DNA from: Minisyncoccota bacterium
Lineage (GTDB): Bacteria > Patescibacteriota > Minisyncoccia > Phycocordibacterales > Zambryskibacteraceae
Assembly (NCBI GenBank): GCA_020059045.1
Contig: JAGVCW010000018.1
Span: 25,320-89,319 of the forward strand
DNA length: 64,000 nt
Direction of reading: 5' to 3'
The notes beneath the pieces were generated by a model. It was not told the DNA's origin and did no database searches. It saw only the letters and a program-made list of their open reading frames with translations. Positions within the stretch are counted from its first letter, which is position 1. The number at the start of each line of letters is the position of its first letter. This document shows positions 3,146 to 55,891 of the stretch, in pieces. A program made the position numbers and the translations under genes.

Positions 3146-3234
3146 ATAGTTGAATAAAGAATAGCGAATATCGAGGGTGGAGTAAACATACTCTTAATTC
3201 ATCATTCCTTATTCCTTACTCTTCCTCCGACATC

Positions 3235-4152
3235 CTACAGCCAGTGCCTATGCTTAAAATAAGCAAACATGAGAAGACAGGCAAAAGCCATAATTCCGAG
3301 TATGTACCAGAAATCGTTCGGTGATCCAATGATAGGGACCGAATCAGCTTCAATGGAAAAGATAGCCGCAATAAGTGTTAGTGGGAATGTCACAAACGCC
3401 ATAATAGTTAGCGTTTTCATGATCTCATTTTCCTTTGTAGAAAGTATTGAATTGTTCGTTTCTCGTAGTTCAGCCACAAACTCCAGGTTATTTGTCAGAA
3501 TATTTTGAACCTTTGAGTACTCGTTTATTACGGACTTAATGTGGTGAGAGAAGTATTCTCCAAACATTCTGTGTCCGAACGAATCAAGCGAATCCAGGAT
3601 CTCCCGATGGAAAACTGTTATTTTTCTGAAGTTCAGTAGTTCGCGGCTCACTTCAGAGAGTGCACGAACCATTTCTTTCTCTTTTCCTTCAAATATATTT
3701 TTTTCAATTTTCGAGAGCCAATTATCAATATACTCAAGTTCGTTGAAAAGTGACATATAAATCTCATTTACAATACCAAAGAAGATTTCCCCGGTAATAT
3801 TTTCACCGAATCCCTTATCAAGTATTGTGTTAACCTCTACCACTTTTGCAAACTTGTCTACAGAGTCTATGGTGTCGTAGCGGGTAGTAATGAGGAAGTT
3901 CTTCCCAATGACGAAATCAATTTCCTGTCGGACCTCACTATCAGTATGGCTGTGTTTGAAAGCGGGGAAATGCAGAATAACGTATATATATTGTTTGTAG
4001 AGCTCTACTCTAGATTTGATAGTAGGGGAGATCAGCTCATGAGCAATATCTCTACTTAAAGAGAATTCCTCCATCACACTTCTGATCTCATCTTCTGTGG
4101 GTTTGGTGATATCTATCCAGACTACACCTCTGTAGTTATATCGATTTATCAT
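3235..4152 (-). CDS. CorA-family divalent cation transporter homologue lacking the GMN signature
   Basis: 305 aa with two C-terminal TM helices and a CorA-like C-terminus (LTIMAFVTFPLTLIAAIFSIEADSVP...YFKHRHWL). The position of the canonical YGMNF loop reads FSIEA instead. Confidence 0.75.
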   Translation of the reverse strand: MINRYNYRGVVWIDITKPTEDEIRSVMEEFSLSRDIAHELISPTIKSRVELYKQYIYVILHFPAFKHSHTDSEVRQEIDFVIGKNFLITTRYDTIDSVDKFAKVVEVNTILDKGFGENITGEIFFGIVNEIYMSLFNELEYIDNWLSKIEKNIFEGKEKEMVRALSEVSRELLNFRKITVFHREILDSLDSFGHRMFGEYFSHHIKSVINEYSKVQNILTNNLEFVAELRETNNSILSTKENEIMKTLTIMAFVTFPLTLIAAIFSIEADSVPIIGSPNDFWYILGIMAFACLLMFAYFKHRHWL

Positions 4153-5515: not shown

Positions 5516-5587
5516 GCTGGCAATCGTTTCCCATTGGACAAAGAGCTATTTATAAGTAGTATTAAACCCTAAATAATAAGATTAGGA

Positions 5588-5715
5588 ATCCCGTTAGAGA
5601 CGGTCGGGGTTAAGAGTAATATACAATAGTAATAAGCGTTTAGAGGTCGAAAAAATCATTTAATAAAAAATCTAATCAAGACAGGAATCGAAAGGTTCCT
5701 TGTCTCTAACGGGAT
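5588..5715 (+). repeat. TIR-bounded ~125 bp element, copy 3 (ATCCCGTTAGA ... TCTAACGGGAT), ending in the rplI start codon
   Basis: A perfect 11 bp inverted repeat at 5588-5598 and 5705-5715. The final AT of the downstream repeat is the first two bases of the rplI ATG (5714). An internal hairpin GACAGGAAtcgaaaggTTCCTTGTC precedes the downstream repeat. Related copies are at 26261-26385 and 54938-55062. Confidence 0.7.
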
Positions 5716-6163
5716 GAAGGTAATACTACTAAAAGATGTGCCAAAGATTGGTAAGAAATATGAGGTCAAGAACGTGGCTGAAGGTCATGCTCTCAATTTT
5801 CTTATACCCCGGGGTCTAGTTGAGACTGCCACAAAGAGCGCTTTAGAGAAGGTTAAGACTTACAAGACTCAAGATGAAGCAAGGAGGAAAATACAGGAAG
5901 ACCTACTTCTGAAAAATATTGCGGATCTCGAGGGTGTAAAGATAGAGATGAGCGAAACAGCGAATGACAAGGGTCACCTTTTTGCAGGTATTCACAAAGA
6001 AGAGATAATCCCAGAAATTTCAAAACAGACTAAGCTTGAGATTCTTCCAGAGCACCTTCTGCTTGATAAGCCTATTAAGTCTGTCGGTGAACATATAATA
6101 GAAGTCAAAATCAGAGATACTCACGCCAAATTCACTCTAATTGTAAGCGCAAAGACAGATTAA
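5714..6163 (+). CDS. rplI: 50S ribosomal protein L9
   Basis: 149 aa, MKVILLKDVPKIGKKYEVKNVAEGHALNFLIPRGL..., canonical L9 N-terminus. Confidence 0.9.
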   Translation: MKVILLKDVPKIGKKYEVKNVAEGHALNFLIPRGLVETATKSALEKVKTYKTQDEARRKIQEDLLLKNIADLEGVKIEMSETANDKGHLFAGIHKEEIIPEISKQTKLEILPEHLLLDKPIKSVGEHIIEVKIRDTHAKFTLIVSAKTD

Positions 6164-6849: not shown

Positions 6850-7065
6850 AAAAAAAGATCCTGCAGGTTGCATTCGCCTCCTCTTTACTCCTCACTCTTA
6901 ATTCTCTGCTCCTAATTCTTTATTCTCCATTCCTCATTCTACGATTCATCATTCATTCTTCTCCCTTTCCACTGCACTCATTATTTTAGTAGTTAGATCA
7001 ATTAGAAATTCTCTCCCTTACTCCTCATTCTTCCCCCGCTCTTGCTACGTTGTTGGTTGTCGGTG
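6850..7065. repeat. polypyrimidine (+ strand) ATTCNT/TCCTCATTC-rich tract, locus A, containing a 39 bp core shared with locus B (6979-7017)
   Basis: Low-complexity CT-rich + strand run (tcctcattc, attcat repeats). The core cattattttagtagttagatcaattagaaattctctccc matches 37848-37886 at 35 of 39 positions. Confidence 0.6.
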
Positions 7066-25134: not shown

Positions 25135-26262
25135 CTAGCCTTCATGCCTAAGTGCAATCTTGAGTATTTCATCAGCAATTTTCCGGGCTGCATCAGGTTT
25201 TACAAATAATTTCGCTGACTCCTTCATTTTAGATATGATCTCGGGTGCCCCAAGAATTCTTGAAACTTCTGCAAATAAAATATTTCCGGTAAGATTATTT
25301 TCCTCAATTACTTCTGAGCTTCCGGTACGTGCGTAAGCAAAGGCATTTTTCGTTTGATCGTGGCTCACCTCCTCGGGGATAGGTATCATAATGGACGGGA
25401 TGCCCCACGCCGCAACCTCAAATATTGCTGACCCTGCTCTCGATATAACCAAATTTGCTGCTCCAGCAGCCGAACGCAATGTTAGGGCATCGAGATAGCT
25501 GTATGGGCGGTACCTGTCCTTGTGCTCACTTTGAAAGAGTACCGCCTCAGCCACCTTCTTAACTTCCTCAAAGTTTCCTTTGCCAGTCTGATGAACAACT
25601 TGGTACTTCTCTACTAGCCTTGGAAGAACTTCAAGCAGGGCCTCATTTATCCTCTTTGATCCAAGTGATCCGCCAAGTATAAGAATAGTGGAAAGTAGAG
25701 GGTCAAGTTTTAGAAATTCATGAGCATTCGTTGCAAGTGGCATGAAGAATTCCTTCCTAATGGGGTGCCCAGTATGTGCAACTTTCTCCATTGGGAAATA
25801 TGCTGCAGCTTCACCATACGAAACTGCAATCCGGGTTGCAAATTTACCTGCCCATTTACTTACTTTGCCAGGTCGAGTATCTGATTCGTGAATAACAACT
25901 GGAATTCTAAGTATTCTTGCCGCAAATAGTGCTGGGAAACTCGCATACCCTCCCTTGCCAAACACAACATCAGGGTATATCAAGAATATTTCCCAAATGG
26001 ATTTTATAACTCCCCACCCGGTTTTAAACAGGTCAAAGAAGTTCATTATCGAGAAATATCTTCGAATTTTACCAGCGTAGTTCTTCTTGTAAATTATGTT
26101 GTTATTAAAAAGAACTCCCGCATTGTATGGTGAGGGTGACATATAGTAGAGTTCCACATCTACAAGTTTATTTTCTCGGACAATCTGGTTCAGCTCCTCG
26201 GCAATTGCAATAATCGGGTAAAAATGCCCGCCTGACCCCCCTCCTGTAAATAAGATCTTCAT
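25135..26262 (-). CDS. murG: undecaprenyl-PP-MurNAc-pentapeptide-UDP-GlcNAc GlcNAc transferase
   Basis: 375 aa. The N-terminal MKILFTGGGSGGHFYPIIAIAEEL is the GT28 MurG hallmark. Confidence 0.92.
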   Translation of the reverse strand: MKILFTGGGSGGHFYPIIAIAEELNQIVRENKLVDVELYYMSPSPYNAGVLFNNNIIYKKNYAGKIRRYFSIMNFFDLFKTGWGVIKSIWEIFLIYPDVVFGKGGYASFPALFAARILRIPVVIHESDTRPGKVSKWAGKFATRIAVSYGEAAAYFPMEKVAHTGHPIRKEFFMPLATNAHEFLKLDPLLSTILILGGSLGSKRINEALLEVLPRLVEKYQVVHQTGKGNFEEVKKVAEAVLFQSEHKDRYRPYSYLDALTLRSAAGAANLVISRAGSAIFEVAAWGIPSIMIPIPEEVSHDQTKNAFAYARTGSSEVIEENNLTGNILFAEVSRILGAPEIISKMKESAKLFVKPDAARKIADEILKIALRHEG

Positions 26263-26385
26263 CCCGTTAGAAGTAAGGAGTCGTGAGACTCCTGTTTTGT
26301 TAGTATAGTAAATAAAACGCTATCTCGAGTATCTGGCACATACAAATTTATCGTTGTTTTAAAGCACAACCACTTCTAACGGGAT
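26261..26385 (-). repeat. TIR-bounded ~125 bp element, copy 1, oriented so that its terminal repeat ends in the murG ATG
   Basis: ATCCCGTTAGA at 26261-26271 and TCTAACGGGAT at 26375-26385. On the minus strand the sequence reads ...CCTTACTTCTAACGGG-ATG-AAG, the murG start. An internal hairpin CAGGAGTCtcacGACTCCT is present. It shares the blocks GATAAATTTGTAT.TG.CAGAT and TTTTATTTA with copy 2. Confidence 0.7.
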
Positions 26386-26428
26386 GAATCCCGTTAGATC
26401 CTCATTTTAACATATAATTTTGGCACTT

Positions 26429-27538
26429 TTAGCTCACTTTCTTTTGTCCTTTAGATATATTTAATATTATGCCGACTTCAGCCAGGGTAAAGAAAAGAGC
26501 TGTCCCCCCATGGCTCACAAAAGGCAGTGGGTTTCCAGTAAGCGGCAAAATCCCAAGCATCGCACCCATATTGAGAAATGCTTGGGAAACAATTAGTGCA
26601 ACAATTCCAACTATTAAATATTTACCAAACGGGTCCGTGGTCCTTGCTGCAATTTTGAGCCCACGTAAACCAAACAGTACAAACATCGCAACTATTGCAA
26701 TAGTTCCAGTAAAGCCGAATTCCTCACCAGCCACAGCAAATATAGAGTCACCTGTTGGTTCGGGCAGAAAGTTGAATTTTTGAATACTTTGGCCGAAACC
26801 TCTTCCAGTTAATCCACCAGAACCTATTGCAATGAGAGATTGTTGGATCTGGTAACTTGAAGTAAGACCATTTTCCGCAGGATTAATAAACGTTTGAATT
26901 CTTTGTTTGATATATGGTCTTGCACTAATGATTATTCCCACACATAGCACACCAATGAGAAACACAGGTATCATATGGCGCCACTTTCCACCCGCTGTAA
27001 GAAATATAGCAAACCCAGCTAGCGCAGTTATTGCGAGTACATCAGTATCAGGTTGGCTAAGGAGCACTATGGCAACAAGTCCGAGAATTACAAGCATAGG
27101 GAGAAGCCCATATTTTATGGTAGTAACTTTGTCCTTAATCCCCGCTACCCATGCAGACATATAAACTACAAAAGAAATTTTCAAAAGTTCAGATGGTTGG
27201 AAAGAGAATCCGAACAAGTGTAGCCACCTGTGTGCTCCTCCATGCTCAAATCCTATACCCGGGACAAACACTAGTACAGAAAGAATAAGTGATAAGCCAA
27301 AGGCGATAAATGACACCTTTCTCCAGAACCGGTACGGTATGCGCGATGTAATTATTAAAGCGAGAGTCCCTAGAAATAAACCGAAAAATGTTTGAGAAAA
27401 CGTTGCGCTTGAGTATCTGTCGCCTCCTTTTGCAAGTAGACCAAGTGATGCAGAGCTAAATATGAAAAAACCTACAACAATTAGTGCAATAACAGAGAAC
27501 AAAAACATTCTGTCGAAGCTTTTAGACATCGCATTCAT
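26429..27538 (-). CDS. ftsW: SEDS-family peptidoglycan polymerase FtsW/RodA
   Basis: 369 aa, 10 TM, with the conserved SEDS C-terminal region (PLPFVSHGGTALFFTL). Confidence 0.88.
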   Translation of the reverse strand: MNAMSKSFDRMFLFSVIALIVVGFFIFSSASLGLLAKGGDRYSSATFSQTFFGLFLGTLALIITSRIPYRFWRKVSFIAFGLSLILSVLVFVPGIGFEHGGAHRWLHLFGFSFQPSELLKISFVVYMSAWVAGIKDKVTTIKYGLLPMLVILGLVAIVLLSQPDTDVLAITALAGFAIFLTAGGKWRHMIPVFLIGVLCVGIIISARPYIKQRIQTFINPAENGLTSSYQIQQSLIAIGSGGLTGRGFGQSIQKFNFLPEPTGDSIFAVAGEEFGFTGTIAIVAMFVLFGLRGLKIAARTTDPFGKYLIVGIVALIVSQAFLNMGAMLGILPLTGNPLPFVSHGGTALFFTLAEVGIILNISKGQKKVS

Positions 27539-37523: not shown

Positions 37524-37562
37524 GCAAAAAACCACTTTGAGTTTATCGAAAAGTGGTTTTTT
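37524..37562. terminator. bidirectional intrinsic terminator
   Basis: AAAAAACCACTTTgagtttatcgAAAGTGGTTTTTT, downstream of the histidine kinase gene on the minus strand. Confidence 0.6.
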
Positions 37563-37799
37563 GAAAGCCTACTGATTAAGCAGCAACTTCTCCTTCTGCT
37601 CCTTCCTCCTTTGGTTTAACTGGATTCATAGGATCCATTGCTGGGTCCTGGGTGTTATTTGGTTCCATGATGATTTATAGTACTTAGAATGCTAATAATC
37701 TAGCTGTATTCGACTCCAAACGGCCTCTCTTGCCGAAAAATAATACTCGACGATTAGCCGAGTCCCTCTAAGTATACAGCACTCAATTCTAAATTGCAA

Positions 37800-37925
37800 G
37801 CATCAACCCCCCCAAGTATTTATTCATATCATTCGTGGGATCGTATTCATTATTTTAGAAATTAGATCAATTAGGAATTTTCTCCCTTTTTATTCCTCCT
37901 TCATTTTTCCTTATTCTTCCTTCCC
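37800..37925. repeat. polypyrimidine/ATTCNT tract, locus B, with a 39 bp core (37848-37886) nearly identical to 6979-7017
   Basis: The core cattattttagaaattagatcaattaggaattttctccc is followed by ttattcctccttcatttttccttattcttcc. It runs into the 3' end of the histidine kinase ORF. Confidence 0.6.
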
Positions 37926-39578
37926 CGGTATCTCAATATAGAATGTTGAGCCCTTTCCTTTACCATCTGACTCCACCCACACTCGCCCCTTATGTGCCTC
38001 AACCATTTGCTTAGCAACATATAGTCCTAGTCCTGTCCCAGAGACATTTGTTTTGGATGCGTCCTTAGCTCGCGAAAACATTGAAAAGAGCTTCGATGTT
38101 TCCTCAGGTGCTATACCCACACCAGTGTCAGTTATTGAGAACCTAATTATATGATCAGAAGACTTCCCCACAGAAACTGTGATACCTCCTTTTGGTGTGT
38201 ACTTTATCGAATTATCAACAATATTACCTATAACTTGCTTAATCTTACCTCGGTCGGCTCTTACCATGTATTGCCCGGGATTTGCCTTGTACTCAAAGCT
38301 AAGGCCTTTTTTCTCTACATTTGGACGCAGTTCAGCTACTACTTCTCGAGCAAGCACTTCCGCATCAAAGTCTGTTAATTCGTATTTCATTCTTCCCTGC
38401 TCAATTCGTGATACATCAAGGAACTCGTTTACAATTTTAATAAGGCTCTTTGATGATTGATCAATAATACCTATTTGGTCCATGATCTTTGGAGGTACTT
38501 CGCCAAAGTCTCCTTCCAGAAGCATAGAAGCATATCCATCAATTGCTGTCAGTGGAGCTCGAATTTGATGTGATGCAAATGATAAGAACTGGGATTTAAG
38601 CTGATCTAATTCCCTGAGTCTTGTATTCGCCTTCTCTAAGTCTTGTGCAAGCTTCTCTATCCTTTCGCGCTGCTTAATTTCACGTTCAACACTTCTGATA
38701 AGTAGGTACCCGAAAACAAGTGTAAGCAGGACAGTTATGGTATTTAAGATAATGGCAGTTCCTCCATCTATGAATGTATATTGGGTTCCTATAAGTGCAA
38801 CAAGACCAGCAACGAGCATCTGTACTCCCAAAACCTTTATGTTAAAGGCCTGGAACTTGACAATTAAATATGCAAGGAACGCTACAAATACAATCATTCC
38901 AAATAGGCCGTATATTTCAAAAGTATAGTTGCCTGTTCTCTCAGAAATCTGTCCAGCAATGAAGAATGCGAATATGAATCCCAAGATGCCGATGGTTAGT
39001 AGGCTAATCTGTTTTCGTAGCTGACTTTTTGCCTCAAAAAATTTATAAATACCAAACCCCAGAATAATGACAGACAAAATAAGCTTAAGATAAAATACAT
39101 AGCTCAAAAACAAAGGGCTCTCCAGAGCCACACACTCCTGCAGATCATATTCTGTTAAATATGACGTTGTTGGCGCAGCAATAATAATTGGCAAAAGTAG
39201 CAGTGCGAAACCAATCTTTGCAATTATTGGGGCATCCTTCTTTGTAATAAATACATATACAAAATAAAGACACAGTTCAAACAGAAGTACACTGAAAATT
39301 TCAATAGGTGCCCACGAGAACATAAGAACACTTGCCTTATCGTAGTTTATCCAAATTGCAAGATCGAGAAACGCCCATAATGAGAATACCAGACTAATGG
39401 AGAGTAATATTTTGGCCAAAAGGTCCTTTTTGTTTTGTGTGTATACAAAAACTCCTGCCAAAAGTGCAATTATTGCTGTAGGTATGTGCGAGTAATATAA
39501 AAGCTTTAAGAGATTATCGACAAACTCCCCACAGTAGGCGAGGTTCTCTGAAAAGTTGAAATCAATAATTTCTAGCAT
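37911..39578 (-). CDS. sensor histidine kinase with a multi-TM N-terminal sensor domain
   Basis: 555 aa with 6-7 predicted TM helices. The HisKA H-box is FASHQIRAPLTAI, and HATPase_c N/G boxes are present (DNSIKYT, DTGVGI, GTGLGL). Confidence 0.85.
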   Translation of the reverse strand: MLEIIDFNFSENLAYCGEFVDNLLKLLYYSHIPTAIIALLAGVFVYTQNKKDLLAKILLSISLVFSLWAFLDLAIWINYDKASVLMFSWAPIEIFSVLLFELCLYFVYVFITKKDAPIIAKIGFALLLLPIIIAAPTTSYLTEYDLQECVALESPLFLSYVFYLKLILSVIILGFGIYKFFEAKSQLRKQISLLTIGILGFIFAFFIAGQISERTGNYTFEIYGLFGMIVFVAFLAYLIVKFQAFNIKVLGVQMLVAGLVALIGTQYTFIDGGTAIILNTITVLLTLVFGYLLIRSVEREIKQRERIEKLAQDLEKANTRLRELDQLKSQFLSFASHQIRAPLTAIDGYASMLLEGDFGEVPPKIMDQIGIIDQSSKSLIKIVNEFLDVSRIEQGRMKYELTDFDAEVLAREVVAELRPNVEKKGLSFEYKANPGQYMVRADRGKIKQVIGNIVDNSIKYTPKGGITVSVGKSSDHIIRFSITDTGVGIAPEETSKLFSMFSRAKDASKTNVSGTGLGLYVAKQMVEAHKGRVWVESDGKGKGSTFYIEIPGKEE

Positions 39579-47422: not shown

Positions 47423-47451
47423 ACCCCTTATCCCTCCTTATTCCTCATTCT

Positions 47452-48105
47452 TTATTCATTATTCTTCCCTTCATACTCTCCAATCTGAACTTTAGCTGGT
47501 CTCACAAGCTTTCCATTTAGCATATACCCTGCCTGAAACACTCCCTTCACCATATGATCTTCTTCTTTTTTAGTAACAGGAACCATGTTTACTGCCTCAT
47601 GCAGTTTTGGGTCAAATGCTTCACCAAGGGCTTTTATTTTTTCTAAACCATGACTTTCAAGGGCCGCTACTAGTTGGCCAATACTTGATTCCATACCTTT
47701 CCTCCACTCGGGAGGCAACGCCTGCCAGGCGGCCTCATCCTTTCTAGCAATTTCAAAACTATCCAGTGCTGGGATAATATCAGATAGAAGTCCGGCAGTA
47801 GCCCATTTCATAAATGTTTCTCTGTCAGAACTATCTTGCTTACGAAGATTTAGGAAATCTGCCTTATCCTTTTGCCAATTTGTTAGGTATTCCTGCTTCT
47901 CCTTTTCAGCTCTCTTAAGTTTTTCCCTAAGTTTCTTTATGGTTTCCTGCATGGACTCTTCCGCGACAACTGAGTCATCCCTATACGCATCTTCCTCAAG
48001 ATGCGTCGGGCGATCATCCACAGATGATTTAGCCAGATCTGTGTCGGTGTCGACAGTTACGTCATCGGCCTCATGATTTTCGTTTTTATCATCATCTTTT
48101 TTCAT
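47452..48105 (-). CDS. grpE: nucleotide exchange factor GrpE
   Basis: The GrpE fold is clear (coiled-coil plus C-terminal beta domain, ...RKDEAAWQALPPEWRKGME...). The start is probably M at 48105 (MKKDDDKNE). The ORF track extends it to 48195 with a hydrophobic, unlikely N-terminus. Confidence 0.85.
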   Translation of the reverse strand: MKKDDDKNENHEADDVTVDTDTDLAKSSVDDRPTHLEEDAYRDDSVVAEESMQETIKKLREKLKRAEKEKQEYLTNWQKDKADFLNLRKQDSSDRETFMKWATAGLLSDIIPALDSFEIARKDEAAWQALPPEWRKGMESSIGQLVAALESHGLEKIKALGEAFDPKLHEAVNMVPVTKKEEDHMVKGVFQAGYMLNGKLVRPAKVQIGEYEGKNNE

Positions 48106-54822: not shown

Positions 54823-54939
54823 CTATCCCTGCCTCTGCTTATGTCTAGGATTAGCTTTGCATATAACATAAACATAGCCCTTCCTTCGGACTACCTGACA
54901 CTTGGTGCACATCTTTTTTACTGAAGCCTTAACTTTCAT
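54823..54939 (-). CDS. rpmJ: 50S ribosomal protein L36 (below the ORF-track size cutoff)
   Basis: Manual translation of the minus strand gives [38 protein letters not shown] (38 aa, a C-x2-C...C...H zinc ribbon). The ATG overlaps the terminal inverted repeat of repeat copy 2. Confidence 0.85.
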
Positions 54940-55062
54940 CCCGTTAGATGTAAGGAGTCCTTAGACTCCTGTCTTGCTAGGTTATTAAATAAAACTCTAT
55001 TTCGGTCATCTGACATATACAAATTTATCATTATTCTTTACCTCGACTACATCTAACGGGAT
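54938..55062 (-). repeat. TIR-bounded ~125 bp element, copy 2, oriented so that its terminal repeat ends in the rpmJ ATG
   Basis: ATCCCGTTAGA at 54938-54948 and TCTAACGGGAT at 55052-55062. On the minus strand it reads ...CCTTACATCTAACGGG-ATG-AAAGTT. An internal hairpin CAGGAGTCtaagGACTCCT is present. It is about 75% identical to copy 1. Confidence 0.7.
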
Positions 55063-55149
55063 TCATCCCACAATATAATCTAATCAAATATACGAATTAA
55101 GATTGTACATGAGATAGTATTATAGTCAACAAAGAGTGGTATGGTTGAT

Positions 55150-55184: not shown

Positions 55185-55649
55185 GTGCTACAAATAAACA
55201 GGACCCTCCACCTAGAGGTAGCTGTGCAAAGACGTTACTACGCAATTATTCTTTTGTTGACGCTTGTTGGTCTCCTAGCAACAGCTCTGTTTGGATTAGT
55301 TCAAACGCCTGAAGAAGTGTTAGGGGCTCTTGCTTTAATAGGCACATTTTGTACCTTGGCAATCTACAACTTTCCGCATAATCGTCAATTACGACTTCAT
55401 AGGGAAATGAAGTTTGTTCTTGAGGAGATTCGTTTCATTGATAGCGAGATCGCTAACCTAGAAATCAGCAAATGGCGAATTAAAGCAGAGTACCCTATTG
55501 GTAGATCTCAAGCTCTACCACAAATATCTTGGTACCAAGCATGGAACCACAAGGAGAGAATTAGAGAATTAAAGGCAAGAAAACCAGAACGCGTTGAGAG
55601 ACTTTTCGCGCTTGTGATGAATTCCAAAATACCACTTACAATCGATTAA
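55185..55649 (+). CDS. hypothetical 2-TM membrane protein inserted between infA and rpmJ on the opposite strand
   Basis: 154 aa with a GTG start, two TM helices and a charged C-terminal helix. It is antisense to the flanking conserved ribosomal operon. Confidence 0.45.
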   Translation: MLQINRTLHLEVAVQRRYYAIILLLTLVGLLATALFGLVQTPEEVLGALALIGTFCTLAIYNFPHNRQLRLHREMKFVLEEIRFIDSEIANLEISKWRIKAEYPIGRSQALPQISWYQAWNHKERIRELKARKPERVERLFALVMNSKIPLTID

Positions 55650-55669
55650 TGAGTGGTTTTTTTAATTTC

Positions 55670-55891
55670 TTAGAGTCTTCTAATAATTCTTCCTTTACCA
55701 CCATATGGATCAATTTCTACTTCTACACTATCACCGACAAGAATACGGATTTTATGCATACGCATTTTGCCCGATAGATACGCGAGGAATTCCTCTGCAC
55801 CGTTTTCAGGCATTACTTTAAACAAAATATTTGGGAATGCTTCGGTTACTTTTCCTATAATTATTTCTTGTTTTTTTGTTGGGTCAGGCAT
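55670..55891 (-). CDS. infA: translation initiation factor IF-1
   Basis: 73 aa S1-like OB fold, ...[51 protein letters not shown]... Confidence 0.9.

Follow-up and report, generated by a model that had tools for sequence, protein, structure and literature searches.

What kind of sequence ends in the start codon of the gene behind it, and does so at three places in one stretch of DNA? The window analysed here, a stretch of 64,000 nucleotides from a Minisyncoccota bacterium, contains seven exact matches to the 11-mer TCTAACGGGAT on its two strands, compared with 0.9 expected with one mismatch allowed. Three inverted pairs of this 11-mer bound elements of 125–128 bp that share identical 11-nt ends and lie where rplI, murG and rpmJ begin (Table 1). 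The initial annotation had reported these elements, and the 11-mer search reproduced them exactly; it had also placed the start ATG of each gene inside the downstream repeat, and each of these ATGs indeed opens the named, Pfam-confirmed ORF. The explanation that we consider fairly probable is that all three loci contain members of a mobile family of Patescibacteria, MITE-like and non-autonomous, which inserts at start codons and for which a stop-restart mode of expression is proposed.

Layout and predicted folds of the window copies

The gene-proximal repeat of every window copy reads TCTAACGGG-ATG-AA(G/A). In copy 1, the rplI ATG is formed by the final two bases of the element and a G. Copies 2 and 3 are 80% identical, and the interior of copy 1 is unrelated to the interiors of both. 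The shared internal blocks and the CAGGAGTC hairpin, which had been ascribed to the first two copies, are in fact features of those at 26261 and 54938, and the divergent copy is the one at 5588. All seven window repeats are perfect despite the 20% interior divergence between copies 2 and 3. Other gene starts in the window carry no convincing element relics, and no tRNA or tmRNA was found in the window.

Table 1. Positions of the three elements, their parts and the adjoining genes in the window
Feature	Position	Strand	Remarks
Element copy 1	5588..5715	+	128 bp; 3' end is AT of rplI ATG; exact repeats 5588-5598/5705-5715
Copy 1 P1, 5' strand (ATCCCGTTAGAGAC)	5588..5601	+	Pairs with 5702-5715 (GTCTCTAACGGGAT)
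Copy 1 helix P2, AGGAATC-GAAA-GGTTCCT	5683..5700	+	Followed by a single U, then the P1 3' strand
Copy 1 decayed left start duplicate	5584..5587	+	AGGA versus family ATGA (one T-to-G change)
rplI (ribosomal protein L9)	5714..6163	+	Pfam L9
Element copy 2	26261..26385	-	125 bp; ends in AT of murG ATG; exact repeats 26261-26271/26375-26385
Copy 2 helix P1	26372-26385 with 26261-26274	-	Sequence and predicted fold
Copy 2 helix P2, AGGAGTC-TCAC-GACTCCT	26276..26293	-	Sequence and predicted fold
Lone seventh repeat, TCTAACGGGAT-TC	26388..26398	-	Abuts copy 2 on its 5' side
murG	25135..26262	-	Pfam MurG
ftsW-family gene upstream of copy 2	26429..27538	-	Stop 43 nt ahead of the lone repeat; Pfam
Element copy 3	54938..55062	-	125 bp; ends in AT of rpmJ ATG; exact repeats 54938-54948/55052-55062
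Copy 3 helix P1	55049-55062 with 54938-54951	-	Sequence
Copy 3 helix P2, AGGAGTC-TAAG-GACTCCT	54953..54970	-	Sequence and predicted fold
Copy 3 left start duplicate, ATGA	55063..55066	-	Compared with family pattern
Upstream ORF inside copy 3, 31 codons	54936..55031	-	TGA overlaps rpmJ ATG (ATGA)
rpmJ (ribosomal protein L36)	54823..54939	-	Pfam L36

The lone seventh repeat and the neighbouring repeat of copy 2 together make the palindrome TCTAACGGGAT-GA-ATCCCGTTAGA, and the lone repeat is able to pair with the 5' repeat of copy 2 in place of the 3' repeat. The same layout of lone repeat and element recurs at murG in locus L160, and tandem copies are present in L047, L078, L010 and L012. The upstream frame that is open in copy 3 extends over 38 codons in copy 2, with TTG and GTG starts, and a TATATT hexamer ends 5 nt upstream of the left ATGA of copy 3. 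In copy 1 the left ATG is absent, and neither stop frame offers a start codon.

The predicted RNA folds of the three copies contain a long-range helix (P1) and a local hairpin (P2), with fold z-scores of -4.39, -4.10 and -4.36 for copies 1, 2 and 3. A closing helix had been described as the repeats extended outwards to 11–13 bp; the helix is present but measures 14 bp in all three copies and consists of the 11 nt plus three interior base pairs. The local hairpin beside the gene-proximal repeat is equally real, although the copies had been numbered inconsistently. Across 150 copies, P1 is 99.0% paired versus 93.0% in shuffles, and double-sided changes occur in nine of its 14 pairs (207 cells; none of 500 shuffles scored as high). 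Helix positions 12–14 covary, fully compensated variants were found within the 11-mer itself, and G-U variants maintain the pairing and leave the ATG intact. The 7-mer of P2, which sits at a fixed offset, occurs in 35 distinct sequences and meets a complete 7/7 partner in 59 copies and a 6/7 partner in 50, compared with 8.6 and 36 after permutation. Compensatory changes, which had been proposed as a check, are found in both the closing helix and the inner hairpin.

On the 3' strand, P1 and P2 together make up a quasi-continuous helix of ~21 bp. In an mRNA, the ends of the element would pair as P1 and bury the AU of the new AUG, with P2 adjoining and stacked alongside. The structure appears to belong to the mobile element and not to a gene-specific riboregulator; the genes downstream are diverse, and most of their orthologues are without the element. 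Covariation between the two ends may stem in part from the copying mechanism and not from RNA function.

Spread, mobility and start-codon duplication

The wider search for the paired motif that the initial annotation had called for retrieved the exact end pair, at a spacing of 90–120 nt, in no fewer than 119 contigs, which represent many lineages of CPR across the Patescibacteria; the copies run into the hundreds. This database search demanded exact 11-mers, which fixes the first and the last duplicated base, so the apparent invariance of the ends is inflated. The consensus of the element is about TCCCGTTAGA-RRY ... RYY-TCTAACGGGA, in which conserved inverted repeats of 10–11 bp are followed by 3 covarying bp, and the interior is AT-rich and highly variable with no conserved pocket-like part. 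Many copies hold an internal TAACGGGA-like or AGCGGGA-like motif. Element lengths range from 65 to 210 bp, mostly 112–142 bp, and are not multiples of 3; short variants have lost interior sequence and retain both ends, and 5'-truncated copies are absent. Up to three copies occur per 6–8-kb locus, and the genes downstream are diverse. About 90% or more of the copies lie at start codons. The orientation relative to the gene is the same in ~90% of copies, though the ends are symmetric, and inverted copies show the same flanks as the others.

No viral carriage was detected among 2.9 million viral contigs (0 matches). The elements match no Rfam family of riboswitches, leaders or ribozymes at gathering score in the window and 14 loci, and hits at E<10 on copy 2 were noise only. 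Literature searches by sequence and by topic returned no description of the element. The family is apparently undescribed to date and widespread in the ultra-small Patescibacteria (CPR), and it is a previously unannotated, common feature of Patescibacterial genomes.

Filled and empty sites were compared at murG, where ~6 of 77 orthologues are filled or carry relics and the others are empty. The murG gene in L147 is filled, and those in L148, L168 and L177, whose MurG proteins are 86–92% identical, are empty with precise borders. Two near-identical copies are located at unrelated genes in L056, and relics are decaying in place at L122 and L164. Empty sites in close relatives together with near-identical copies at unrelated genes demonstrate that the element is mobile. 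Four of the accepted features of a MITE are fulfilled: the element is short (<300 bp) without coding capacity of its own, it has terminal inverted repeats, its target duplication is of characteristic though not perfectly fixed length, and its dispersed copies are polymorphic between relatives. The initial annotation had offered, as one of two options, a MITE-like element that either inserts at initiation regions or supplies them; the spread, the filled and empty sites, the near-identical copies, the start duplication and the relics support this option, and the empty sites and target duplications that it had suggested seeking in relatives were both found. It would have been refuted by a motif confined to three places without covariation or mobility, or by an extended ribosome-binding site found at most gene starts. 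Neither is the case, as the motif is widespread, covarying and mobile and is not a general ribosome-binding site.

The type of enzyme that moves the element is inferred only. No transposase or autonomous partner with the same ends was found in ~1.3 Mb of element loci, and a Pfam scan of 27 window ORFs revealed none. The only exact lone ends in the loci that were read, those in L074 and L011, were recognised as an element with a 1-nt insertion in one end and as a copy cut by the edge of the locus.

The flanks of 134 copies carry the trace of insertion. An ATG lies within 0–2 nt of the left end in 112 copies; in 108 of these 112, the base or bases after the left ATG match the right flank (ATG-X|element|G-X), and a G directly follows the right end in 129 of the 134. 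When the ends are set at 10 bp, the duplication measures exactly 4 bp in 100/134 copies, 3 bp in six and 5 bp in six; in the remaining 22 it is absent or decayed. The duplication is thus not strictly fixed in length (3–5 bp, and 2 in two cases). Judged from the flanking letters, the pattern fits a 4-bp target duplication TGNN, mostly TGAA or TGGA. Where a copy begins with G, ATGAG is found on either side of it, which assigns that G to the target. The right junction is always ...GGGA|TG, and the left junction varies by 2–5 nt. Left ATGs decay by single changes (for example to ATA, ACG, CTG or AGG), and the old ATG has been lost in 22/134 copies (~16%), including two of the three window copies. 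Xer/dif-like or serine-recombinase (hix-like 11-2-11) core sites were considered on account of the TCTAACGGGAT-GA-ATCCCGTTAGA palindrome; once the G-first variants are taken into account, a staggered duplication of 4 bp is the better fit.

In the proposed mechanism, integration at a start codon would duplicate ~4 bp (TGNN). On the right side, the terminal A of the element and the duplicated TG would again make an in-frame ATG, and the gene would survive. The left duplicate would remain with the former driver of initiation, which may be a leaderless promoter whose -10 ends 6–9 nt upstream or an overlapping upstream stop (ATGA). Random insertion followed by purifying selection does not easily explain the siting at start codons, and a targeting step or positive selection is needed. 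The shared orientation, despite symmetric ends, is not predicted by a plain DNA transposon.

Initiation context, upstream ORFs and rival readings

The host genomes are largely leaderless and without Shine-Dalgarno sites. The initial annotation had pointed to the lack of such a site at the three starts; this is correct but not special, as only seven of 57 long window ORFs possess one. Hexamers of the -10 type peak 6 nt ahead of the left ATG, and the same is seen at ordinary window genes and at empty murG sites. Upstream genes often end at the left ATGA or at a TAG within the 5' end of the element. The initial annotation had missed the lone seventh repeat and the duplication of the ATG, and it had recognised neither the leaderless context nor the stop-restart design nor the spread through the phylum.

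The 3' end of the element carries UAA-CGGG-AUG and AUGA, so that each of the two non-gene frames meets a stop. Upstream ORFs that open with ATG, span 15 codons or more and end at the UAA number 56, compared with 18.0 +/- 4.0 in shuffles, and in-frame upstream ORFs are depleted (6 versus 11.9 in shuffles). Taken together, the built-in stops terminate an ATG-started upstream ORF of 15 codons or more in 71 of the 134 copies. Relative to the old ATG, the new ATG places 53 copies in the UAA frame, 33 in the UGA frame and 26 in frame. These upstream-ORF counts are phylogenetically non-independent. The junction expected for termination-reinitiation, with a stop within a few nucleotides of the next start or overlapping it, is present, and reinitiation itself is inferred.

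The approximately threefold enrichment of UAA-ending upstream ORFs suggests, by inference, a relay in which the element is translated through and the ribosome stops and restarts. Ribosomes would start at the old AUG or at an AUG inside the element, translate into the element and melt P1 and P2, stop either at the UAA, which precedes the new AUG by 4 nt, or at the UGA, which overlaps this AUG, and restart at the new AUG; the insertion would in this way neutralise itself. Copy 1 has neither a left ATG nor a start in the stop frames, so such a relay cannot be the sole route of expression. No significant link was observed between a left -10 and full-length upstream ORFs (15/45 versus 15/67). An outward promoter inside the element was rejected as a family feature, with -10-like hexamers equal on both strands (97 versus 100 copies; TG-extended, 7 versus 7). 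Some element-internal upstream ORFs have leaderless-type promoters. A conserved leader peptide was likewise rejected, as the lengths, frames and sequences of the ORF peptides upstream of the new ATG are not conserved.

The covariation of P1 and P2 admits a reading mainly as a host cis-regulatory RNA, a translational occluder or switch in which P1 hides the AUG and opens in response to a factor, to temperature or to an alternative pairing, and host selection retains an element whose mobility is merely its origin. It gains weight from the G-U variants that preserve both pairing and ATG, from the ~90% shared orientation relative to the gene and from the seven perfect window repeats beside the 20% diverged interiors of copies 2 and 3; the internal TAACGGGA-like or AGCGGGA-like motifs or the lone repeat of copy 2 could compete for the 5' strand. 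We nevertheless regard it as unlikely: the affected genes are an arbitrary set, orthologues in close relatives manage without the element, relics decay in place, the AT-rich and variable interior has no conserved pocket, and Rfam yields no match. The structured leader that the initial annotation gave as its other option, occluding the start, is accordingly upheld for the RNA, in which P1 and the hairpin covary, but not as a gene-specific riboregulator, given the diverse genes and the orthologues that mostly lack it. The constant right junction and the left junction varying by 2–5 nt would also be produced if a hairpin were cut from mRNA, annealed by its 3' end (...GGGAUG) to the complement of a start codon and reverse-transcribed. 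Sense-transcript intermediates would account for the orientation bias, selection for the hairpin structure fits, and CPR retain RNase III among their RNases (PMC12641178). This RNA-mediated mobility is quite unlikely, since 5'-truncated copies are absent and short variants retain both ends, 75% of the duplications measure exactly 4 bp as with staggered DNA cuts, no reverse transcriptase was linked to the elements, and inverted copies show the same flanks.

The quasi-continuous ~21-bp stack of P1 and P2 could alternatively be an RNA processing signal, cut by RNase III or another nuclease to give an mRNA that starts at or near the new AUG and is leaderless again, as most host genes are. Precedent is provided by the Correia elements of Neisseria, whose hairpins of terminal inverted repeats are bound or cut by RNase III (PMC2649163). 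However, the helix includes the AU of the AUG, a 5'-terminal AUG would not result from the known cuts of RNase III, and the enrichment of UAA-ending ORFs and the in-frame depletion would stay unexplained; we consider this reading very unlikely. Programmed bypassing of the kind known from T4 gene 60 and the mitochondrial 'byps' would have ribosomes leave the old AUG, hop over the hairpin and land on the new, identical one. This would match the identical take-off and landing codons and next bases that flank a stable hairpin, and bypass inserts elsewhere are themselves mobile (bioRxiv 10.1101/2022.08.31.505936). Bypassing is highly improbable here, as the old AUG is followed by an ordinary sense codon (AAU or GAU) that is neither a stop nor rare, the old ATG is dispensed with in ~16% of copies, and the frame and upstream-ORF statistics point to ordinary translation into the element. 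Only the position beside ATGs favours a species-specific extended ribosome-binding site or chance matches. We consider this practically ruled out by the excess of exact matches (7 versus 0.9 expected), by the presence of the motif at only three of ~57 window genes, by the inverted partner that always lies ~100 nt upstream and by the orthologues that mostly lack it; outside the elements, the 9-mer is no more frequent than chance when one mismatch is allowed, which also excludes a general ribosome-binding site.

The mobile family with its inferred stop-restart expression thus remains the preferred explanation. A bolder version of it is offered only tentatively, as a possibility: the element would be more than a parasite that hosts put up with, namely a portable, superphylum-wide 'start-site relay' for organisms whose initiation does without Shine-Dalgarno sites, in which obligatory loading at the old AUG, leaderless or coupled, gates a few percent of CPR genes, ribosomal and cell-wall genes included, and in which start targeting is active and possibly RNA-mediated. 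The element-borne upstream ORF would then be translated, the 14-bp helix opened, and stop-restart would hand the ribosomes to the real AUG.

Known systems and meaning

Correia/CREE (NEMIS), ERIC and RUP elements are short, co-transcribed MITEs that form long hairpins and affect expression (PMC2649163, PMC2229807, PMC10969869). They share with the present element a length of ~100–150 bp, the lack of coding capacity, multiple copies, terminal inverted repeats and a short target duplication. In contrast, they are intergenic, use TA or similar sites and are restricted to genera, whereas the present element sits on the start codon in ~90% of copies, rebuilds the ATG, places stops in both non-gene frames beside it, and has spread across a superphylum with nearly invariant ends. 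Correia elements proper (26-bp inverted repeats, TA duplication, Neisseria) differ in ends, duplication and hosts alike. A 2024 review of MITEs mentions neither start codons nor CPR. Rickettsia palindromic elements are also selfish, palindromic, ~100–150 bp long and harmless to the product; they are inserted in frame and translated within the host protein (PMC10969869). In the present element, in-frame read-through is depleted and the protein is unchanged, and an identity with the Rickettsia elements was rejected on the lengths that are not multiples of 3, the in-frame ORFs (6 versus 11.9) and the interior stops.

The bypass inserts of T4 gene 60 and the mitochondrial 'byps' are, like the present element, mobile, flanked by identical codons and equipped with a hairpin that the ribosome gets past. 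They lie within coding sequence and require peptidyl-tRNA hopping, whereas here the initiator ATG is repeated, its old copy is dispensable and the statistics favour stop-restart; the flanking codons match, but the next codon (AAU/GAU) and the loss of the old ATG in 22/134 copies exclude a programmed bypass element. AUGA and UAAUG coupling junctions likewise have a stop near or overlapping the next start, with an upstream ribosome that melts the structure hiding it; unlike these ordinary junctions, the one described here is mobile and is brought ready-made to many unrelated genes. REP/REPIN sequences resemble the element as hairpin-forming repeats with compensatory changes that are long-lived and host-wide. 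A REP, however, is a palindromic unit with a GTAG head, extragenic, without target duplication and linked to a RAYT, none of which is seen here; the 11–14-nt ends of the element are not self-complementary, its copies sit on start codons and duplications are present, and a REP/REPIN-RAYT system was rejected on these grounds.

Further candidates were discarded. Integron attC sites (RYYYAAC ... GTTRRRY) have the opposite order, as the element has GTTAGA first and TCTAAC last on both strands. The boundaries do not suit a group I or other intron, and introns make no target duplication. The Rfam families named above gave no match.

Introner-like elements of eukaryotes are DNA transposons whose own end and target duplication recreate a splice site, and they are removed by splicing; they were reportedly treated by Huff et al. 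in 2016. In both cases a recreated signal makes the insertion harmless, namely a splice site with splicing in the introner-like elements and a start codon with translational by-pass in the element described here.

A gene into which mobile DNA inserts itself is normally destroyed. The present element represents a different way of being harmless, in which the start codon is targeted and rebuilt from the last base of the element and the duplicated target, with a ready-made stop-restart junction. Gene callers applied to CPR genomes will meet duplicated starts and 40-codon upstream ORFs at such loci. The elements mark true start codons, and they could be put to use as markers at strain level or as a portable device for coupling. 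The identity of the enzyme that acts on their nearly invariant ends throughout the superphylum is a tractable question. If the obligatory relay were true, the expression of a few percent of CPR genes would be gated by a stop-restart step. For the study of leaderless translation and of translation driven by reinitiation, the elements amount to a natural experiment within a huge and poorly studied bacterial group.

Element anatomy and the duplicated start codon

The 11-mer TCTAACGGGAT was found as seven exact matches on either strand of the 64-kb window, where ~0.9 would be expected even with one mismatch. Six of these form the three inverted pairs reported in the initial annotation, and in each pair the gene-proximal repeat runs, as had been claimed, into the ATG of a gene (L9/rplI, MurG and L36/rpmJ). 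Copies 2 and 3 exhibit 80% identity over 135 nt; copy 1 has only ends and architecture in common with them. The seventh repeat, previously overlooked, is unpaired and forms with the adjoining end of copy 2 the palindrome TCTAACGGGAT-GA-ATCCCGTTAGA. The three starts indeed lack a canonical SD, but this is a genome-wide property rather than a special one, as an SD precedes only 7/57 long ORFs. A motif search of the window ruled out the 11-mer as a general ribosome-binding site.

Coordinates of elements and neighbouring features in the window and in loci fetched from other genomes (L-numbers)
Feature	Position	Remarks
Copy 1	window 5588-5715	rplI
Copy 2	window 26261-26385	murG
Copy 3	window 54938-55062	rpmJ
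Unpaired repeat	window 26388-26398	adjoins copy 2
154-codon ORF	window 55185-55649 (+)	no Pfam match; between infA and rpmJ, on the opposite strand; breaks the usually compact infA-rpmJ-rpsM arrangement
infA	window 55670-55891 (minus)	
Second intergenic repeat family	window 3190-3238, 6880-6942, 37885-37933, 47433-47481; 6978-7033 and 37847-37902	CT-rich on plus strand (GA-rich on minus); TTATTCCT-like units; includes a 56-nt pair of 82% identity
Two similar terminator-like hairpins	window 37525-37565 and 55625-55665	CAAAAAACCACTTT...AAAGTGGTTTTTTG
Minimal versions (65-85 nt)	L024 4314-4393, L084 3929-4013, L148 147-228, L147 2421-2502, L029 158-239	second helix usually kept; AT-rich interior mostly lost
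Copy with inverted flanks	L076 2773-2891	flanks an inverted, not direct, repeat (GCGCTC/.../GAGCGC), lengthening the palindrome to 17 bp; outward-reading ATG on both strands
Copies in bins labelled non-CPR	L046 1169-1282 (WOR-3), L067 5514-5652 (Omnitrophota)	same ends; GC-rich hairpin interiors; no ATG or gene on either side; 4-bp duplications TTTA and TAAA
Elements near the cell-division cluster, related genomes	L160 2296-2502, 3625-3820; L172 1124, 2384, 3625	three in each genome within 6 kb of the cluster, including at the gene after murG

With 134 copies oriented by the downstream ORF, the consensus reads ...ATG-X / ATCCCGTTAGA RRY ... RYY TCTAACGGGAT / G-X.... The first base of the right flank is a G that completes an ATG in 129/134 copies, and this right ATG opens a long ORF in ~90% of copies. 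A left ATG precedes the left end by 0-2 nt in 112/134 copies; there, X (A 77, G 19, T 2, C 2, CA 4, AA 2, GA 1, absent 5) is identical to the base(s) following the right ATG in 108. Where the left ATG is missing, the sequence is mostly one base away from it (GTG, ATA, CTG, ACG), and copy 1 has AGG.

Extra copies from the same loci, obtained by dropping the exact-11-mer constraint, were decisive for the element borders. In copies whose 11-mer begins with G, both flanks read ATGAG (L010, L115, L160), and one copy in L034 has ATGCG duplicated, so that this base must be part of the target. These sequences are most simply described as an element TCCCGTTAGA...TCTAACGGGA with a 4-bp flanking duplication, which measures exactly 4 bp in 100/134 copies and 3 or 5 bp in six copies each. 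The ATG is rebuilt from the last A of the element and the duplicated TG, which in two copies (L009, L072) turned an old TTG start into ATG. In a sub-variant with C...G termini, also at a start codon, the duplication is CATG or TTGA (L160_1080, L003). About 15 of the 22 copies unconstrained by the search pattern directly precede an ATG from which an ORF of 100 codons or more starts. Both ends are kept in short (65-85 nt) and long (~195 nt) versions.

Pairing of the element ends

The closing helix of the paired ends (P1), which contains the AU of the new AUG, had been described as 11-13 bp; it exists, and its pairing extends 3 bp inwards in every window copy, giving 14 bp. The local hairpin 5´ of the gene-proximal repeat was also confirmed, as a 7-bp hairpin (P2) 1 nt 5´ of the gene-proximal strand. 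Both helices are present in the predicted RNA folds of all three window copies (z-scores -4.1 to -4.4). In an alignment of both ends from 150 copies, P1 is 99.0% paired compared with 93.0% in shuffles, with two-sided changes at 9 of its 14 pairs, in 207 cells; 0/500 shuffles reached these values, and sliding the partner by 1-3 columns reduced pairing to only 35-45%. At positions 12-14, A-U/G-C and U-A/C-G alternate almost 50:50 with 2-5% mismatches, and rare variants within the conserved part are fully compensated (ACCCCG/CGGGGT, ATCACG/CGTGAT, CCCAATAGA/TCTATTGGG and GCTAGA/TCTAGC).

The P2 7-mer, taken at a fixed offset from the 3´ end, comprises 35 different sequences, and its partner is perfect in 59 copies and matches at 6/7 in 50, compared with 8.6 and 36 after permutation. 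P2 forms either a local hairpin, GGNNNNN-loop-NNNNNCC-U, or a helix with the bases just after the P1 5´ strand, leaving the AT-rich variable region in the loop; it is located on the gene-proximal side in ~90% of copies. On sequence evidence alone, selection on this pairing points to a stage at which the nucleic acid is single-stranded, as RNA or ssDNA. It cannot be excluded that the copying mechanism made both ends evolve in concert.

At many loci, the element 5´ half contains a motif similar to the 3´ end, TAACGGGA-like or AGCGGGA-like, that could be an alternative partner of the 5´ end, instead of the long-range helix. An AT-rich block (ATTATTAAT-like) also recurs at many loci, 10-15 nt before the second helix.

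Distribution and mobility

Bacterial and archaeal genomes, one for each species, were scanned for ATCCCGTTAGA-N90-120-TCTAACGGGAT, and at least 119 contigs carry the end pair at 90-120 nt spacing. Among the matches listed, nearly all are Patescibacteria/CPR (Saccharibacteria, many Parcubacteria/Paceibacterota lineages, Levyibacteriota and Kerfeldbacteria), and a few lie in bins labelled otherwise. Exact 11-mers were demanded, so the ends in this sample are invariant partly because of the search itself. No viral contig with the end-pair pattern was found. The copies in L046 and L067 could be mis-binned or belong to a related family outside CPR.

The initial annotation had suggested a MITE-like mobile element as one of two readings, and this one is supported by filled and empty murG sites, the start-codon duplication and near-identical copies elsewhere. 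Among 80 orthologous loci retrieved from metagenomes with the window MurG (50-71% identity), an element occupies the murG start only in L132, L147, L160 and L172; L164 and L122 carry decaying relics, and all others read uninterrupted ...ATGAAAAT..., many with an extended -10 element 6-8 nt upstream. L147 is filled and L148, L168 and L177, with MurG 92, 91 and 86% identical to its own, are empty; their alignment reveals a clean 80-odd-nt indel bounded by duplicated ATGA. Near-identical copies occur within one genome at unrelated genes and flanks (L056_324/L056_6261; the L049 pair), and tandem copies occur in L047, L078, L010 and L012. The genes downstream are varied and recur only modestly (murG, rplI and topA 3x each; pheT 4x). 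The filled and empty sites, within-genome copies, diverse genes and size variants are hallmarks of a non-autonomous mobile element. In L160, a lone repeat contains the end of the ftsW ORF (…ACT CTA ACG GGA TGA).

The copies are more concentrated at start codons than would be expected if they inserted at TGNN sites and were then subject to purifying selection; the orientation bias is likewise unexpected from symmetric ends. No transposase or recombinase was detected in the 27 window ORFs scanned or adjoining lone ends. The right junction is constant and the left varies by ±1 nt, which leaves room for an RNA-mediated or recombinase-type mechanism.

Initiation context and a possible stop-restart relay

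In the nearly SD-free window, -10-like hexamers pile up 6-9 nt before ATGs, with extended -10 boxes at many, a signature of leaderless mRNAs, which appear, as judged from these motifs, to be the norm both in this organism and among the relatives with murG orthologues (L120-L198). The original context for initiation stays with the left ATG: -10 hexamers are most frequent 6 nt upstream (13 copies, with 12 more at 7-9 nt), and SD-like motifs before it are at chance level only. In operons, the upstream gene often ends in the left ATGA (~15 cases) or TAATGA, and in 7 cases at a TAG within the element 5´ end. Stop codons in the element 3´ end close both non-gene frames, one with a UAA 4 nt ahead of the AUG and the other, whenever X = A, with a UGA that overlaps it.

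ATG-started ORFs of at least 15 codons end at the UAA in 56 copies, compared with 18.0 ± 4.0 (max 33) when the AT-rich interior is shuffled. Upstream ORFs that share the frame of the gene are fewer than expected (6 vs 11.9), and those ending at the UGA are near expectation (17 vs 12.3). Counted from the old ATG, 53 copies place the new one in the UAA frame and 33 in the UGA frame, and in 26 both ATGs share one frame. In 30 copies, a single ORF opens at the old ATG and spans the entire element as far as the built-in stops, and 41 others have a long ORF from an internal ATG. Copy 3 contains a 31-codon ORF with its TGA overlapping the rpmJ ATG, and the homologous frame of copy 2 stays open for 38 codons. 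These counts are not phylogenetically independent; as predicted ORFs, they show that ribosomes matter at the elements.

A stop-restart relay is proposed because of the retained left-ATG context, the built-in stops and the upstream-ORF statistics. A ribosome would start at the old site or an internal start, translate into the element, melt P1 and P2, stop adjoining the new AUG and restart there; that genes stay expressed by such melting and reinitiation is inferred. Copy 1 lacks a left ATG, and its stop frames contain no start, so other initiation routes must exist. At copy 2, the AUG could become free through competition of the lone upstream repeat for the 5´ strand.

The element family is real and widespread. 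It is apparently undescribed: no Rfam family matched the elements, at gathering score or at E<10, and sequence and keyword searches of the literature found no description; a 2024 review of prokaryotic MITEs makes no mention of start codons or of CPR. By the operational definition the family is a MITE, except that no autonomous partner is known. Similar to Correia and ERIC elements, it forms mRNA hairpins and, similar to RPEs, 'byps' and introner elements, it neutralises its own insertion. Its solution is its own: the start codon is targeted and rebuilt, and a stop-restart junction, as inferred from the putative relay, would be supplied.
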